From Candidatus Micrarchaeota archaeon (GTDB lineage Archaea > B1Sed10-29 > JAJRYS01), in the NCBI GenBank assembly GCA_964643685.1, contig CAZXTN010000001.1:96001-160000 (forward strand): DNA of 64,000 nt, read 5' to 3'. Within the stretch, counting starts at the first letter, position 1. Each line of letters opens with the position of its first letter. Below, one piece after another: positions 12,827 to 18,222 of the stretch. A program made the translations under genes and the position numbers. Under the pieces are notes generated by a model that did not search any database, had not been told where the DNA came from, and worked only from the letters and a program-made list of their open reading frames with translations.

Positions 12827-12901
12827 GCTTCCGTCTTCTAGCTCGGTCAAGGATGAGGGACTCTCACTCCCTCGACGCGGGTTCAAATCCCGCCGGAAGC
12901 A
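12827..12901 (+). tRNA. tRNA-Glu(CTC), intronless
   Basis: GCTTCCG/CGGAAGC; AGGGA-CT-CTC-AC-TCCCT; GCGGG-TTCAAAT-CCCGC. Confidence 0.95.
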
Positions 12902-12964
12902 CTTAAAAGGAATAAAAAGCAGTGAAGGGTTTAAATCAGAGAAGAGAGTTAAAGAGGTATTAAG

Positions 12965-13408
12965 ATGGTTGATGAATTAGATTTGCAGATTTTAAGTATA
13001 CTTAGGAGAGATGCTAGGTTGTCTTATAGGAAGATAGCTGAGGAGTTAGGAGTAGCTACGGGAACTGTTCAGAATAGGATACAGAAAATGGAGCAGGAGA
13101 AGGTAATCACTGATTACCATGCAGGAATAGATTTAAGTAAATTAGGTTACAACATAGCTGCGATAATTGGAATATGTATTGATAGAAAAGAAGCAAGCAA
13201 AATAGAAAAAAAATTAGTCAAGCATTCAAATGTGTTTGCTGTTTATTCAGTAACAGGAGAGTATGACTTGTTTGTAGCAACAAGATTTAAGACAATGGAG
13301 GACCTTAATAATTTTATAAGAAAGGAATTGTCAAATGAATCAATACTGAAAACAAATACTTTCATAATATTAAACATTTCAAAAGAAACATACACCTTTC
13401 TAAAATAA
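12965..13408 (+). CDS. Lrp/AsnC family transcriptional regulator
   Basis: DELDLQIL..L..DAR.SY..IAEELGV HTH; VTGEYDL RAM domain. Confidence 0.95.
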   Translation: MVDELDLQILSILRRDARLSYRKIAEELGVATGTVQNRIQKMEQEKVITDYHAGIDLSKLGYNIAAIIGICIDRKEASKIEKKLVKHSNVFAVYSVTGEYDLFVATRFKTMEDLNNFIRKELSNESILKTNTFIILNISKETYTFLK

Positions 13409-13426
13409 AGAGGAGAAGATGAAAAA

Positions 13427-13885
13427 ATGGCAGAAGATGATTATATAATATTCGACGCAAAAGTAGGCAAATGGATAAGCATTAAAAAAATAAAAATAAA
13501 ACCAGACACAGAAAAAGCAGACGTAGCAAGACTCCTGGCAAGCATACATGACTCCATGCACAGGAAAATATGGGACTTCTTATCAGAAGAAGTAAACTTA
13601 AAAGAACTTGACGAAATAGCATATGAAATAACAGGAGCACAATTCGACAAGAAGAAAAAAACATACGTCGTAAAAGGAAGAAAATCAGAAGCACAAATAG
13701 CAGAAGCACTTGCAAAATGCAACTCCCCCTCAACGACAAAAAAGATAACAAAGTCTCCTAACAAGTATTACTTAGAAATAGCAAAAACTTACTTGACAAG
13801 AAAAGTCATCGACTTGCTTGGAGTAAGAATAGAAATAGACCCAAAAACAATTGAAAAATACATGGAACAAAAAAGCAAACTATAA
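13427..13885 (+). CDS. Conserved archaeal hypothetical protein (DUF2666-like)
   Basis: I.F.AK.GKW...KKIKI...TEK.DVARLLASI N-terminus resembles my recollection of DUF2666. Confidence 0.55.
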   Translation: MAEDDYIIFDAKVGKWISIKKIKIKPDTEKADVARLLASIHDSMHRKIWDFLSEEVNLKELDEIAYEITGAQFDKKKKTYVVKGRKSEAQIAEALAKCNSPSTTKKITKSPNKYYLEIAKTYLTRKVIDLLGVRIEIDPKTIEKYMEQKSKL

Positions 13886-13951
13886 AAAAAATCCTTTAAC
13901 AATTTCTTTTAAATACTAAAAAACAAACAAAAAATAGATAACACAAAAAAA

Positions 13952-14133
13952 GGGGCTATAGGGTAGTCATCGCTTACATTAAAAAAAAAGCGACTATAAT
14001 GGTCCATCCTTCCGGCTTTGGGAAAATTCTTCTCAACAGAAGAATTTAAAAACAGCCGGGGACCCCAGTTCGAACCTGCAATGAGTAAACTCACTGAGTT
14101 TTTCTCTTGCAAGAGAAAATCTGGGTAGCCCCA
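13952..14133 (+). tRNA. tRNA-Pro(TGG) with three introns: D-loop 13969-13999, 37/38 14023-14053, 59/60 14075-14119
   Basis: Removing three hairpin inserts gives GGGGCTA-TA-GGGTAGTCTGGTCCATCC-TT-CCGGC-TTTGGGA-GCCGG-GGAC-CCCAG-TTCGAAT-CTGGG-TAGCCCC-A. Confidence 0.9.
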
Positions 14134-14160
14134 TTAACAACTTCTCTAAAAAGAATAAAG

Positions 14161-14280
14161 TTAATTAAACAGAATACACAAGGGTTCCTTCTGCAACTAT
14201 GTTTACTATGCGTTTTGCAGAAGTTTCTTCTGCAACTGCGCTTGCTATGCGTTTTGCAGAAGTGGGGGAGCTTGGAAAAC
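14161..14280 (+). repeat. Degenerate copy of tRNA-Leu(TAA) upstream flank and 5' end, interrupted by two tandem 36-nt hairpins
   Basis: TTAATTAA..AGAA..CAAGGGT and GGAGCTTGGAAAAC match 14286-14328; units CTTCTGCAA...TTGCAGAAG at 14188-14223 and 14227-14262. Confidence 0.85.
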
Positions 14281-14303
14281 TCCCATTAATTAATATAGAA
14301 CAC

Positions 14304-14424
14304 GCAAGGGTGGCGGAGCTTGGAAAACGCGCAGGACTTAAGATCCGTACACAGGTTTTCAAACCTACCGGTTTGGTTATCCTGTGTCTCAGTGACTACG
14401 AGGGTTCAAATCCCTTCCCTTGCA
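14304..14424 (+). tRNA. tRNA-Leu(TAA) with 37/38 intron (~14343-14378, 36 nt)
   Basis: GCAAGGG/CCCTTGC; CAGGA-CT-TAA-G|...|A-TCCTG; long variable arm; GAGGG-TTCAAAT-CCCTT. Confidence 0.9.
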
Positions 14425-14603
14425 CTAATGGGTTTTATGCCCATGGGTTTTGATGCAACTTTTGTCAAAAGTTGCGTTTAAATCCCTTCCCTTGCACTTT
14501 GAAAAAAAATAAAGGGACTAAGCGAAGCGCATGTCGCTGGATTAAATGCAATTTTTGTTAAAAATTGCTGACAATCCCTTCCCTTGCACTAATGGGCTTA
14601 TGC
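14425..14603 (+). mobile_element. Two short palindromic inserts, each followed by a direct repeat of the tRNA-Leu T-loop-to-3' end (att-like)
   Basis: AATCCCTTCCCTTGCACT at 14409, 14481 and 14573; hairpins GCAACTTTT-GTC-AAAAGTTGC and GCAATTTTT-GTT-AAAAATTGC. Repeats are seen directly; mobility is inferred. Confidence 0.65.
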
Positions 14604-14620
14604 TTAATGGAGTTAATTTG

Positions 14621-14773
14621 ATGGGTAAGACTAAAAAAGATTTGAACAAACAAATGCAGTCAATTAAAAAAAGAATTGCTGAGTTAGAGGATAAAGCAAG
14701 AAAAGACCCTTTGAAGAAAAACAAAGCTTTGCATGAAGAACTAGCTAAATTAAAGAAAAAATTAAACAAGTGA
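14621..14773 (+). CDS. Small basic hypothetical protein (50 aa)
   Basis: MGKTKKDLNKQ...LAKLKKKLNK with GGAG upstream; helical pattern. Confidence 0.5.
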   Translation: MGKTKKDLNKQMQSIKKRIAELEDKARKDPLKKNKALHEELAKLKKKLNK

Positions 14774-14784
14774 AAAAGATAAGA

Positions 14785-15168
14785 TTAGATTTTTAGGGTT
14801 TTTTTAACAGCTTCTAATTCATTTTTAGGAATTCTCTTTTCAATTAAAAAATTATAAAAATCTACTTTAACCTTTCTAGGAAGCTTGTTAATATCCTGCG
14901 TTAAAAAGTTCCTCTTCAACCTAGTTTCTCTTAAAATTTGATTAGGATCAACTTTTGGAAGCAAAGTTGACATTGTTGCAAGATCTCCTGCTTCTCTTAT
15001 AGCAGAGTTGATGTCTCTCTGCATTTTTTCTTCTCTTAAATTCTTTCTTGCTTTTGAAAAAGAACGAGCCCATTTCCCATAAAGCCCCAATCTACCAGCT
15101 AAAGTAGCATCTTTAATTGCTTGACTAGCTGGGCTTCTACTACTCCTATTTTTACTTCTTGGTGCCAT
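14785..15168 (-). CDS. Hypothetical basic protein
   Basis: 127 aa ATG ORF with TTTAAATA box upstream; no recognisable motif. Confidence 0.55.
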   Translation of the reverse strand: MAPRSKNRSSRSPASQAIKDATLAGRLGLYGKWARSFSKARKNLREEKMQRDINSAIREAGDLATMSTLLPKVDPNQILRETRLKRNFLTQDINKLPRKVKVDFYNFLIEKRIPKNELEAVKKTLKI

Positions 15169-15225
15169 ATTCTTTTGTTAAGTTTTTTAAAGTATTTAAA
15201 ACCAAAACATAACAGAAAACTAAAA

Positions 15226-15407
15226 GCCTCGGTGGCTAAGACAGCAACAAAAACCAACTTTTTTGCTGTGGAAATGGTATAGCGCGTGCTTGGTAACTCT
15301 TTTGAAAAGGAAGAGACGAAAAGCACGAGGCCGCGGGTTCAATTCTGCGTTAAAAAAAATGAAAAAGAAGGAGTTTTTTTGCGCAGGTGAAAATCCCGCC
15401 CGAGGCT
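15226..15407 (+). tRNA. tRNA-Thr(GGT) with three introns: 15/16 15241-15274, 37/38 15296-15321, 59/60 15344-15393
   Basis: GCCTCGG/CCGAGGC acceptor; spliced D-arm GCTAAGTGGTATAGC; CGTGC-TT-GGT-AA-GCACG; T-loop BHB TTCA/TGAA. Confidence 0.9.
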
Positions 15408-15416
15408 CTTAACTAC

Positions 15417-15968
15417 TTATTCTTTAAGTGGAAGCAGTTCATTCAAGTTTTTTCTTTTGCCGTACCTGCCTATTGAATCATATGGCTTGCTTGCAGGTGT
15501 TTTTAATTCATGAAAAACCATTTTGCCAATAACCATTCCTTTAGTTAACACCACTTCAAAGGGACCTGAATTGCTGATTTCAAGAATTATTTTCCTTGCT
15601 TTTGGAATTCCATGCCCAGCGTGGATCAAAGGAGCAGTTTGCACGACACTTACCCCTACCCTAGCAAGCCCAGTGCGTCCAGTAATAAAACCACTGACAT
15701 CAAGAGGAATTGTAAATTTTTCAAGAGTACGTGCTAAAATAAAACTATTCGGCTTTAAAACAAAACCTTGCTTTGAAATACGTGTTTTTTTATAAAAAAG
15801 AGAGTAATCACTTACGCCTCTTGGATTTAACTTGCCTTGCTTGGCAATTGCTATTGCTGAATCCAAGTGAATCTTATAAGAATCAGGCTGCAAGTCTTTC
15901 TTGTTAAAAGGAGTTATTTTAAGCTTTTTAGAGTTAATTAATTCAAGAATGTCTTTATCAGAATACAT
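15417..15968 (-). CDS. dcd: dCTP deaminase family protein (divergent)
   Basis: SDKDI, LQPDSY.IHL, LKPNSFILARTLE, GRTGLARVG, ILEISN, GM.IG..VF. Confidence 0.85.
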   Translation of the reverse strand: MYSDKDILELINSKKLKITPFNKKDLQPDSYKIHLDSAIAIAKQGKLNPRGVSDYSLFYKKTRISKQGFVLKPNSFILARTLEKFTIPLDVSGFITGRTGLARVGVSVVQTAPLIHAGHGIPKARKIILEISNSGPFEVVLTKGMVIGKMVFHELKTPASKPYDSIGRYGKRKNLNELLPLKE

Positions 15969-16164
15969 ATAAATAAGAAAAAACCAAACAATGTTTATAA
16001 ACATTCGCTCATAAAATACAAATAAAAGGCAGGGACATGCAAACAATTAAAAAATTGTTTGAACCCCCTACATTATAAGACTGCTGTTAAAAATGCAGGG
16101 GTGCATGAACAAAGCAAGTTTGTTCAATCCCCAGCTTGCCACTATGACAAGCTATTAAGAACAA

Positions 16165-16389
16165 GCAGGGGTAGCCAAGAGGTCAACGGCGCCAGGTTCA
16201 GGTGAACTTCTTTCAAAAAGAAGTTCTGAAACGCCTGGTCTCTCAGTGAGTTCAAGGGTTCGAAAGCAGCCGTATCCGGCTGGCGGGCTAGACGACGTTC
16301 ACTTCGTTCAGTCGTCTGGTTTTCTTTTTAAAAAAGAAAAAGAGTCCGCTTTCAGCTGGAAACAGTTGACGGGAATCCCTTTCCCTGCA
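16165..16389 (+). tRNA. tRNA-Leu(CAG) with 37/38 intron (16203-16232, 30 nt) and long 59/60 intron (16265-16375, 111 nt)
   Basis: GCAGGGG/TCCCTGC; CCAGG-TT-CAG-G|...|G-CCTGG with BHB TTCA/TGAA; AAGGG-TTCGAA|...|T-CCCTT. Confidence 0.9.
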
Positions 16390-16425
16390 TTTATTTTCAA
16401 ATTACAAAAAATGAGTAAATGAAAT

Positions 16426-16500
16426 GCCGGGGTGGTTCAGCCTGCCCCTTTCTTTTAAAAAAAGAAAGCGACAAGTTCGCGGAAAGAAAAAAGGTTGAAA
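16426..16500 (+). pseudogene. Orphan tRNA-Met 5' exon plus a different intron-like sequence, no 3' exon
   Basis: GCCGGGGTGGTTCAGCC identical to 16516-16532; followed by 58 nt ending GTTGAAA (real intron ends GCTGAAA). Confidence 0.75.
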
Positions 16501-16515
16501 AACAATAGAAAAAAC

Positions 16516-16633
16516 GCCGGGGTGGTTCAGCCACTGCGTTGAAAAGATTTCAACGTGTTTTCAGCGCAGCTGAAATGGTTAGGACGCAAGACTCATAATC
16601 TTGAGATCGCTGGTTCAAATCCGGCCCCCGGCA
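16516..16633 (+). tRNA. tRNA-Met(CAT), elongator-type, with D-loop intron (16533-16575, 43 nt)
   Basis: GCCGGGG/CCCCGGC; CAAGA-CT-CAT-AA-TCTTG; strict BHB TCAG/CTGA, bulges CCA and AAT, outer stem CTGCG/CGCAG. Ile2(CAT) identity not fully excluded. Confidence 0.9.
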
Positions 16634-16640
16634 CTAAAAA

Positions 16641-16714
16641 AAGGGCTTTATACCCTTTTGGGTTTTGATGCAACTTTTGTTAAAAGTTGCCGAAGATCCA
16701 GCCCCCGGCACTAA
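16641..16714 (+). mobile_element. Palindromic insert followed by a copy of the tRNA-Met 3' end
   Basis: 16659-16690 matches 14444-14475 at 31/32 nt; ATCCAGCCCCCGGCACTAA repeats ATCCGGCCCCCGGCACTAA. Mobility inferred. Confidence 0.65.
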
Positions 16715-16781
16715 GAAATAAATGAAAAAAAGCCATAACAAAGCATTTAAATAATGCTTTAGATAAAAAAACATAGAAACC

Positions 16782-16924: not shown

Positions 16925-17115
16925 CTACAATTTGTTGAACAAATTGTATTAAACAATCTATCTTCGGCGACAAGCGCCTTGATAGACTAGTTCAAACTTC
17001 TAACGAAGTTTGAAATCTTTTTTGCCTTACGGCAAAAAAATGAGCACTTCAGCAAGCTGAAGGGGTCAATTGATACAAACTTTTAAAGTTTGTTTTGCCT
17101 TACGGCAAAAAACAA
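16925..17115 (+). ncRNA. Candidate multi-hairpin structured element, copy 1 (tRNA-Thr trailer)
   Basis: First 31 nt identical to 17937-17967, then the same order of hairpins. Confidence 0.55.
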
Positions 17116-17808: not shown

Positions 17809-17936
17809 GCCCCGGTAGTCTAGTGGTTAGGATTCAGCCCTGTCGAGGCTGAGACTCGGGTTCAAAAGTGACTTTTCTTTTCAAAAAAGAAAAGACACCT
17901 GAAAAGAAAACACTACTGAAAATCCCGGCTGGGGCG
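17809..17936 (+). tRNA. tRNA-Asp(GTC) with 59/60 intron (17867-17922, 56 nt)
   Basis: GCCCCGG/CTGGGGC-G; CAGCC-CT-GTC-GA-GGCTG; TTCAAA|...TGAAAA|TCCCGG. Confidence 0.93.
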
Positions 17937-18222
17937 CTACAATTTGTTGAACAAATTGTATTAAACAGACCACACAAGGTAGTCTTATTCAAACTCTTTC
18001 AGAGTTTGAAATGTTTTTGCCTTCGCAAAAAAGCTTTGCTTCAAAGAAGGGTTGAAACAAAAATTATAAAAGACCCCTAAGAGAAGCACATGTGGTCTGC
18101 GAGGGAATCAGAAATTCCCTAGAAATCAATCGCCTAACGGCTCAAACGTTTTTCCCTAACAGGAAAAACTGAAAGGGGCAGCAAGTCCCCTGCGTTTCGG
18201 TGAGGATTCAGGCTGGGGCGCT
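17937..18222 (+). ncRNA. Candidate multi-hairpin structured element, copy 2, bounded by a repeat of the tRNA-Asp 3' end
   Basis: Same hairpin series as 16925-17115; GGCTGGGGCGCT at 17927-17938 and 18211-18222. Confidence 0.55.

Follow-up and report, generated by a model that had tools for sequence, protein, structure and literature searches.

Modules behind tRNA-Leu and tRNA-Met

The stretch of DNA analyzed here, hereafter called the window, comprises 64,000 nucleotides (nt) of a Candidatus Micrarchaeota genome (G000, contig C1, positions 96001-160000). The G000 assembly amounts to 695 kb in 12 contigs, has a GC content of 36% and is 91.75% complete. At two places in the window, behind the genes for the transfer RNAs (tRNAs) tRNA-Leu(TAA) and tRNA-Met(CAT), lies the same hairpin-forming element of about 55 bp, followed each time by a second copy of the 3' end of the adjacent tRNA gene. 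This element had been pointed out in an earlier note on the same DNA and is termed class I here; a related module of about 92 nt is termed class II. Two covariance models, R2 for class I and R1 for class II, served to find copies. Positions without a contig name are those of the window. The two loci contain the following features:

14176..14296 (+): partial copy of the tRNA-Leu 5' part (CAAGGGTT ... GGAGCTTGGAAAAC), broken by a tandem repeat (repeat families D18 and D20, C1:110267; the rest by eye)
14304..14424 (+): complete tRNA-Leu(TAA) gene with a canonical 36-nt intron; T60 at 14411, discriminator at 14424 (Rfam tRNA, 45 bits; ARAGORN i(40,36))
14430..14482 (+): class I copy 1, with mini-hairpin at 14430-14442, segment TGGGTTTTGAT, palindromic hairpin at 14455-14475 and tail GTTTAAA (R2, E 3.6e-11)
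14483..14498 (+): first downstream Leu 3' exon copy, T60 to discriminator plus 1-2 nt (repeat family D11; C1:110481-110498)
14513..14574 (+): class I copy 2, with first hairpin 'hp1' GGGACTAAGCGAAGCGCATGTCGCT as in class II, palindromic hairpin at 14548-14568 with a compensatory change, and tail TGACAA (R2, E 2.8e-12)
14575..14599 (+): second downstream Leu 3' exon copy and repeated trailer CTAATGGGC, start of a decayed further module (D11, 96% over 27 nt)
16426..16470 (+): copy of the first 17 nt of tRNA-Met (16426-16442), then A/T hairpin module TGCCCCTTTCTTTTAAAAAAAGAAAG (C1:112426-112442, spacing 90; repeat family D7)
16516..16633 (+): complete tRNA-Met(CAT) gene with a D-loop intron and an unbroken T-arm; T60 at 16620 (Rfam partial, 16569-16633; ARAGORN after removal of the D-loop intron)
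16643..16696 (+): class I Met copy, with mini-hairpin at 16643-16655, palindromic hairpin at 16670-16690 and tail CGAAGA (R2, E 1.5e-13)
16697..16714 (+): downstream Met 3' exon copy and CTAA, with one difference, G to A at position 63 (repeat scan; ARAGORN)

The sequence observations made in the earlier note were borne out. The 32-nt pattern TGGGTTTTGATGCAACTTTTGTYAAAAGTTGC matched the window exactly twice, at 14444-14475 and 16659-16690 on the + strand, and none of 100 dinucleotide-preserving shuffles contained it. The two copies differ at a single one of the 32 positions (C/T, in the loop). A third copy was found at 14537-14568 (75% identical, repeat family D6), the palindrome of which is kept by a change on both sides of the stem: it reads GCAATTTTTG/TAAAAATTGC where the other two have GCAACTTTTG/CAAAAGTTGC, i.e. 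a C-G pair has become T-A. The mini-hairpins are likewise present (GGGTTTTATGCCC at 14430-14442 and GGGCTTTATACCC at 16643-16655). Behind the modules, the Leu 3' end TCCCTTCCCTTGCAC recurs at 14483-14497 and 14575-14589, matching 14411-14425 in the gene, while TCCAGCCCCCGGCACTAA at 16697-16714 matches the Met 3' end TCCGGCCCCCGGCACTAA at 16620-16637. The difference between CCAGC in the downstream Met copy and CCGGC in the gene had been read correctly. This exchange at position 63 turns a U.G pair of the T-stem into U-A, and ARAGORN still calls tRNA-Met(cat) when the downstream copy is substituted for the first.

ARAGORN calls both tRNA-Met and tRNA-Leu without the modules. At both window copies, as at all ten class I copies of the genome, the upstream T-arm is uninterrupted or complete, and no tRNA coding sequence is split at 59/60 there. 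A complete tRNA gene adjoins every exon copy, and its contiguity rules out that the copies are halves of split, trans-spliced tRNAs. Nor is the assembly at fault, because public contigs cross the repeats without any difference. Record 2 of data set X1 covers 12835-15939 and record 11 of X2 covers 12887-16285, both possibly derived from the source sample; record 31 of X4, a 184-nt contig from another study, covers 16569-16752 and is identical. Contigs from four DNA runs were also compared with the region for empty sites, and no joint in them removes a module; the joints seen there belong to tRNAs or repeats of other organisms.

Two observations concern the upstream, 5' copies. The partial tRNA-Leu 5' copy ahead of the real gene contains a 39-nt tandem repeat at 14184-14261 (two copies, 87% identical). 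The A/T hairpin module that follows the copied first nucleotides of tRNA-Met also stands behind a 5' exon copy at C1:166248.

A genome-wide family and its distribution

Throughout G000, copies were identified by BLAST, a direct-repeat scan and the two covariance models, and ARAGORN, Rfam and inspection combined gave a total of about 38 tRNA loci. Ten good class I and 14 class II copies were obtained. The tie between module and duplicated tRNA ends holds elsewhere in the genome, as a repeat of host sequence stands behind all ten class I and ten of the 14 class II copies. The four class II exceptions are a true intron, a diverged repeat at a protein gene, a degenerate repeat and one copy with no repeat. 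The repeats are 10-41 nt long and 53-272 nt apart, and the inserts between them carry no open reading frame (ORF). A downstream 3' exon copy occurs at 16 of the roughly 38 tRNA loci; five tRNAs, tRNA-Met among them, also have their own first 9-19 nt repeated upstream, with another conserved A/T hairpin behind the repeat. Two tRNA loci enter the counts twice owing to an apparent overlap of contigs C8 and C1, in which fuzzy-pattern matches on C8 and at C1:~80800-101500 keep a constant offset (C8:5078 = C1:80867; C8:25166 = C1:100955). By these matches, C8 seems to be a duplicate of part of C1, through assembly redundancy or a genuine repeat. The finding is thus genuine and larger than the earlier note described: the two loci belong to a genome-wide pattern.

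The modules are 55-140 nt long, modular in build and GC-rich (about 57-61% as against 36% for the genome). The class I core is the palindromic hairpin GCAAyTTTTGTyAAAArTTGC, and class II shares its first hairpin (GAsCACT...GTGGTC) and its tail with some class I copies. Whereas the right end of the module is constant, the left side consists of 4-40 nt of variable, A-rich filler, and it is invariably the constant end that adjoins the partial copy, at its gene-internal border. Together with ATCC, the class I core forms an imperfect palindrome of about 40 nt (I24, 80%); class II has no evident inverted ends. Compensatory changes are seen in two of the nine pairs of the class I stem. For class II, the alignment of 27 copies from at least six genomes was 94.4% paired compared with 83.6% after shuffling, 11 of 16 pairs change on both sides, and the covariation score was reached by none of 500 shuffles. 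One U.G pair is invariant in all 26 of 26 class II sequences; the fold is therefore that of one particular strand, and this speaks for RNA or single-stranded DNA and against a protein site on duplex DNA.

In the class II copy at C1:32130-32319 (-), the loop of the last hairpin encloses a unit of class I type, made up of first and palindromic hairpin, and an insert of about 45 nt in this copy is common to the copies at window position 18071, C3:26784 and C6:626. The nested unit and the common insert indicate that modules insert into each other. With the Rfam 15 covariance models, the window gave only tRNA matches at the gathering score, and four module-bearing loci searched at E<=1 yielded nothing but tRNA and chance matches; the modules fit no curated family.

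The repeats begin in the T-loop at positions 53-60, mostly at T60, and usually end just past the gene; the duplicated 3' exon comprises the last 14-17 bases of the tRNA. Beyond the discriminator they extend by 0, 0, 1, 1, 1, 2, 2, 2, 2, 3, 4, 7, 10, 15, >25 and >50 nt, running far into the trailer at C3:79637 and C2:73663. The pooled identity of the repeat copies is 96% over the first 15 nt and 47% over the next 15, after which it falls to the background of 28%. An identity gradient of the kind left by co-conversion was considered and is not supported as a general feature, since most repeats end sharply. Of 18 copies in G000, 14 match the first copy at every position of the exon. Decay is visible as single mismatches in the Met copy, in 18207-18222 and at C7:12195, as a 5-nt deletion on C9, and as strong divergence of the copies in the relative G003.

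Class II modules also stand behind protein genes, at C3:44258-44349 (-), C3:66384-66475, C6:626-761 (-) and, in genome G090, on L048. Their flanks are repeats of about the last ten codons and the stop codon; the repeat at C3:44258 is perfect over 38 nt.

A comparison with relatives shows how variable the arrangement is. Genome G004 belongs to another genus of the same family, and its contig C36 is syntenic with the window. Its tRNA-Met has a true 45-nt intron at 59/60 and nothing downstream, and a neighboring tRNA carries a nearly identical intron. At its tRNA-Leu(TAA) there is no downstream module; instead, a reversed class II copy lies between a copy of the first 21 nt of the tRNA and the gene. 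The module at tRNA-Ile is of class II in G000 but of class I, with decayed copies, in G003. A third comparison is offered by a further tRNA of the window and the module behind it:

17809..17936 (+): further tRNA, anticodon GTC by eye (hence Asp), with a true 59/60 intron (RNAfold of T-arm and intron)
18071..18222 (+): class II module (18071-18206; R1, 78.9 bits), then decayed 3' exon copy of the preceding tRNA (18207-18222, two differences)

At this tRNA-Asp, class II and the exon copy are present in both genera, the orthologous locus in genus g5 showing the same arrangement, and the 59/60 intron only in G000. The reversed copies and those at protein genes imply that the duplication is an event at the DNA level, independent of tRNA splicing.

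With model R1, class II was detected in five of 61 relatives sampled, including G000, and in 17 of 41 genomes around the unrelated G044 (1-2.5 Mb, 47% GC). In the latter group it lies behind tRNAs, where the repeat includes the whole T-loop, in a canonical intron and behind protein genes. Overall, the class II core was present in 22 of about 100 genomes searched. A scan of GTDB with the class I pattern returned 28 stretches, most of them chance bacterial palindromes; five are archaeal and four of these relevant. In one archaeal metagenome-assembled genome (MAG), the class I core stands behind tRNA-Val and is followed by a copy running from the T-loop to the 3' end. The word 'relic' used in the earlier note understates the case: this is an active, genome-wide family in several phyla.

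A third family of modules lies directly behind tRNA 3' ends at window positions 16926-17000 and 17938-18010, and at C6:36625-36720, C7:12215-12260 and C3:54800-54880 (-). It consists of CTACAAwyT..AArTTGTAT, then CTATCTTCGGC...GATAG, then AGTTCAA..., and its two window copies are 92% identical over 48 nt.

Splicing geometry and true introns

The tail CGAAGA of the Met copy had been likened to real 59/60 splice acceptors, and RNAfold as well as counts of T-loop pairing gave module tails the same geometry as those acceptors. In real 59/60 introns, RNAfold places a 5-bp T-stem, a 3-nt bulge with T60, a helix of 3-4 bp between T-loop nt 54-57 and the intron end, a second bulge and the intron helix. 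The modules end in YGAR-NN|T, and their tails (CGAAGA, TGAAGC, TGAGGA, TGAAAC ...) place the complement of TTCR where real acceptors do. When nt -6 to -3 were compared with the host T-loop, 9 of 17 downstream copies paired at 4/4 and four more at 3/4, against a background of 2.1% for 4/4; the copies are related and hence the 17 are not independent trials.

A module forms part of a true intron in tRNA-Gln(UUG) at C1:166404-166657, which has a 59/60 intron of 157 nt with class II as its final 90 nt. Removal of this intron alone suffices for ARAGORN to call tRNA-Gln(ttg), and in the RNAfold prediction a T-stem of 5 bp is joined by the bulge AC|T and a helix of TTCG with CGAA. Behind the same tRNA-Gln gene stands a second class II copy with an exon copy. 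Class II is also located inside a canonical intron in G044. For class I the situation is different: its hairpin was found only inside an intron at the canonical position, 44 nt long, in tRNA-Ser(gga) of an Aenigmatarchaeota MAG, i.e. in another phylum. Of the two readings offered in the earlier note, relics of a mobile T-loop intron or extremely small islands bounded by attachment (att) sites, the former is thus the better supported through the acceptor geometry, the class II intron of tRNA-Gln and the 59/60 intron of tRNA-Met in G004, with the reservation that it was class II that occurred as a 59/60 intron in the genomes searched and never class I.

G000 has one gene for the splicing endonuclease EndA (tRNA_int_endo match of 115.8 bits in a 170-aa ORF, C1:21078-21338). 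In lineages of the DPANN archaea, heavy tRNA disruption is reported to be accompanied by an alpha4-type EndA with an extra loop (PMC5829648).

A self-contained bulge-helix-bulge (BHB) motif within class I (GGG-UUUU-GAU-hairpin-CGAA-GAU-CC) was also considered; it fits on paper, but RNAfold prefers a continuous GGGUUUU/AAGAUCC helix, and such a motif is therefore not proposed here. Three side observations on introns were made. The starts of introns resemble decayed exon copies in a manner that is suggestive, by eye, in 2-3 of about ten introns. In G004, nearly the same 45-nt 59/60 intron (TCyGyGGTGAAAsGCATTTCACCGAGCTTTTCACCGCTGGTGAAA) lies in two different tRNAs, at L018:1860-1905 and 2640-2685, a clear example of an intron common to more than one tRNA. 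A second family of 59/60 introns, about 100-120 nt long (AGCAGCCGTATCCGGCTGGCGGGCT...GTCCGCTTTCAGC...), is common to at least five different tRNAs (window 16170-16390; C6:17236-17345; C6:36290-36375; C9:5950-6050 (-); C1:32380-32480 (-)). It is GC-rich and strongly folded, with -51.7 kcal/mol for the window copy including the T-arm.

Origin of the modules

Taking these results together, we lean towards regarding the ~55-bp element as class I of a group of small, ORF-less, hairpin-forming, intron-like mobile mini-elements at the T-loop, the exon copy being a by-product. The right end of a module is built like the 3' end of a 59/60 intron, with a helix, YGAR pairing with T-loop nt 54-57, two further nt and T60. 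Together with the T-stem of the tRNA it would form an acceptor of stem, 3-nt bulge and 4-bp helix that the archaeal splicing endonuclease could cut. Within a T-loop the module would then be a real intron, as class II is in tRNA-Gln. At the window loci, its arrival or resolution would have spared the gene, leaving the module just behind a complete tRNA and a second 3' exon copy (T60 to discriminator plus 0-4 nt) at its right end.

Spread would be polar, take place at the DNA level and be anchored at the right end, a T-arm-like end being joined to conserved T-loop sequence. In sequence, the module's right end (GCGGTTCGG for class II, GGGTTTTGA for class I) is similar to a T-arm's 5' half. At several junctions, 4-6 nt are shared with the host T-arm (C2:1776, G044 L022, G004 L036), and the left joint at G004 L036 also shares GGGAGG. 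The polarity, the T-arm-like right end and the microhomology at junctions favor host recombination or template switching anchored in the T-loop as the most likely route, the left joint being illegitimate and located immediately behind the gene. Spliceability would let copies that land inside a gene survive.

A bolder extension, which we put forward tentatively and consider doubtful, is that the loci are frozen intermediates in the emergence of tRNA introns in archaea, a process that would need no transposase. Host recombination or template switching, with the universally conserved T-loop as its anchor, would copy a structured module to a tRNA. If both joints were homologous, the gene would gain a 59/60 intron removable by EndA; if the left joint fell just behind the gene, the module would be appended with a second 3' exon. 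Upon decay of the inner exon copy, exon copy plus module could become a longer intron.

Several observations weigh against intron-like mini-elements with a by-product exon copy. All six point differences in the tRNA exon copies lie at T-stem positions 61-65 and none in the acceptor strand, and in one further exon copy just these positions are missing; in this the repeat copies differ from simple neutral relics. Repeat lengths vary while their ends usually lie 0-4 nt past the discriminator, which a template switch fits only if breaks at gene ends are assumed. The predicted acceptor is not universal either, as 4 of the 17 copies carry a copy of the T-loop rather than its complement and pair at just 2/4. 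The 5' splice site behind a tRNA is predicted in a large loop and not in a 3-nt bulge, and when the 5' strand of the T-stem is made to pair with the downstream copy, the structure is 0 to 3 kcal/mol less stable than the unconstrained one (RNAfold). The absence of class I as a 59/60 intron from all genomes searched belongs here as well. The protein genes supply a further objection. Repeat copies were compared for the following three:

C6:736-1266: ScpB-like gene
C3:64020-66377: ValRS-like gene
G090: gene with a class II copy behind it

Among the 12 differences that separate the repeat copies of these genes, 11 preserve peptide or stop codon. Such a synonymous or stop-preserving excess is a poor fit to the neutral decay of a fresh duplicate, and no other point speaks as strongly for one copy being element-borne or of foreign origin.

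An enzyme for mobility was sought in G000 with RVT_1, Phage_integrase, Cas1, Y1_Tnp and DDE_Tnp_1, none of which gave a match, while controls matched; other nuclease families were not tried. Phage_integrase (PF00589) had zero matches in G000 and matched in all 14 control genomes, and Cas1 (PF01867) had none in five module-bearing genomes. The TnpB Zn-ribbon reached 23.6 bits in G000, below the cut-off. Y1_Tnp was present only in G005 and DDE_Tnp_1 only in G003, and neither tracks the modules. Against a purely host-driven spread it may be held that the ~8% of the genome missing from the assembly, or a virus, could carry the gene for an enzyme.

These searches bear on two alternatives that invoke such an enzyme. 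A non-autonomous DNA transposon resembling a MITE (miniature inverted-repeat transposable element), moved by a trans-acting transposase that nicks (R)AA|TC(C) motifs of T-loops, would turn the exon copies into target-site duplications from a long, variable staggered cut; the surviving insertions would be those in which the duplication reaches the gene end or which can be spliced. Such an element would account for direct repeats at tRNA 3' ends, at the 3' ends of three protein genes (perfect over the 38 nt at C3:44258) and, with the module reversed, at a 5' exon. The ~40-nt imperfect palindrome of class I core and ATCC resembles terminal inverted repeats, the many copies with a patchy distribution that crosses phyla are in keeping with a transposon, and that the repeats extend to the gene end in every case would follow from selection for intact genes. 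The reading fails on the variable length of the repeats, 10-41 nt in G000 and about 65 nt at G004 L036, and on the undefined left end with its A-rich filler of 4-40 nt. Moreover, DDE_Tnp_1, Y1_Tnp, Cas1 and integrase were not found in G000 and TnpB only below threshold, and the invariant U.G pair and the G.U pairs suggest that one strand folds by itself, as opposed to protein sites on duplex DNA. We judge it rather unlikely. Islands bounded by att sites, or remnants of them similar to cis-mobilizable elements (CIMEs), would owe their position to a tyrosine integrase with its crossover in the symmetric T-arm, the element bringing its own 3' exon and displacing the original to the far end. Phage-borne replacement gene ends show mostly synonymous differences, which is just what the 11 of 12 in the protein-gene copies recall; together with the polar, right-end-anchored arrangement, this is the integrase-like trait left over, and the cross-phylum distribution suggests horizontal transfer. 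Duplication of the tRNA 3' part from the T-loop is a classic archaeal integration footprint (PMC3293823). The idea of att islands is nevertheless mostly unsupported and in our judgment unlikely: the lack of an integrase match, the tiny ORF-less inserts and the many different targets speak against it. At least 16 different tRNAs and three protein genes are targeted, the protein genes having no T-arm-like core; there is no single att core, the T-loop being the sole sequence common to the tRNA targets; a reversed copy lies by a 5' exon in a relative; and the module is a covarying single-strand structure that is also a real intron. When IMG/VR viral contigs were scanned for the class II core pattern, a single match came up, which lacks the third hairpin of the module and is therefore a chance match, and the downstream Met variant TCCAGCCCCCGGCA is absent from tRNA-Met of the 40 relatives searched.

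The remaining two explanations dispense with mobility or make the copy functional. Were the downstream exons in use, EndA would splice read-through precursors from A59 to the downstream T60, and the copy would be a back-up 3' exon, e.g. after damage to the 3' end. The acceptor geometry in 13 of 17 copies (pairing at 3/4 or 4/4), the acceptance by ARAGORN of tRNA-Met with its downstream copy, in which U.G has even become U-A, the invariance of the acceptor-strand part, the 14 of 18 G000 copies identical over the exon and the retention of module and copy at the tRNA-Asp locus in two genera would all fit. Yet differences at 18207-18222, at C7:12195 and at G004 L021 and L038 break the T-stem, one copy is without positions 61-65, the copies in G003 are heavily diverged, and the same modules occur reversed beside 5' exon copies and behind protein genes. 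T-rich stretches lie between gene and copy, and a canonical 5' bulge is missing, so that such a function strikes us as very unlikely. Least credence of all, close to none, is given to tandem duplication or slippage arising independently at each locus without a mobile element, although three tandem exon copies at the Leu locus and the repeats extending far into the trailer at C3:79637 and C2:73663 could be taken that way. It is already contradicted by the shared spacer: the same 30-55 nt with compensatory changes stand at ten different tRNAs and recur in other genera and phyla.

Intron-like mini-elements therefore have to be compared with known systems. In Thermoproteales, non-canonical archaeal BHB tRNA introns are reported to have transposed between tRNA genes (Fujishima et al., 2010, as cited in PMC4033280). 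The modules are alike in that similar short sequences lie at 59/60 in different tRNAs, in that the intron end pairs with the exon to give a bulge-helix acceptor, and in the nearly identical introns of tRNA-Met and its neighbor in G004; they differ in standing mostly outside the gene with a duplicated exon, also at protein-gene ends and reversed, and in being modular and cross-phylum. Integration of a plasmid or virus at tRNA genes leaves a direct repeat of a tRNA fragment, and in Caldiarchaeum it has been proposed to be linked to intron gain (Sugahara et al., 2012, PMC3293823). That study describes, as in G000, inserted DNA flanked by a terminal tRNA direct repeat and tied to intron gain, but an insert of 1.8 kb with a recombinase, as opposed to 53-272 nt without ORF or detectable integrase at dozens of loci. 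A literature search covering open main texts found no account of exon-duplicating hairpin modules at archaeal tRNA genes. The modules are best filed as a variant of mobile archaeal tRNA introns, that is, as putative intron-like mini-elements with exon duplication.

Likenesses extend beyond tRNA introns. Prokaryotic MITEs and repetitive extragenic palindromic (REP)-type repeats are small, ORF-less, multicopy, hairpin-forming and intergenic, and the modules resemble them in size, lack of ORFs, copy number, hairpins and position between genes. They depart from them in that the flanking repeats are not fixed and short, no cognate transposase was found among the families tried, one end only is defined, and the modules double as tRNA introns with predicted splicing. 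Casposons insert at tRNA 3' ends with a target duplication of 14-15 bp. The duplicated stretch from T60 to N73 is 14 nt and likewise at the tRNA 3' end, whereas the five module-bearing genomes lack Cas1 matches, repeat length is variable, the inserts are gene-less and clear terminal inverted repeats are missing. In eukaryotes, 'introner' transposons create spliceosomal introns. With these the modules have in common that a mobile element, its ends supplying host splicing signals, is tolerated in genes; different are the protein endonuclease acting on bulge-helix-bulge, the tRNA-loop targets and the lack of a known transposase. If the loci were indeed frozen intermediates, the modules would be the archaeal counterpart of introners, exchanged by horizontal transfer between archaeal phyla living in the same habitats.

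The route by which tRNA introns of archaea reach new positions is an open question, and a 2026 preprint on Asgard tRNAs leaves their mode of arrival open (10.64898/2026.10.13.758758). G000 and its relatives provide dozens of snapshots that bear on it, and the modules may be a snapshot of how such introns spread. Since the module families are seen as true introns, as insertions behind genes with an exon copy and as empty orthologous sites, comparative genomics, population genomics and EndA assays can put the question to a direct test. With the class II core, at least one structured RNA/DNA motif widespread in archaea is defined that Rfam does not contain. For annotation, it matters that about 40% of the tRNA loci in G000 carry pseudo-exons and that standard finders missed most intron-rich tRNAs: across window positions 1-64000, ARAGORN reported three tRNAs and Rfam five, yet at least ten lie between 12630 and 17940 alone, most of them with 1-3 introns.

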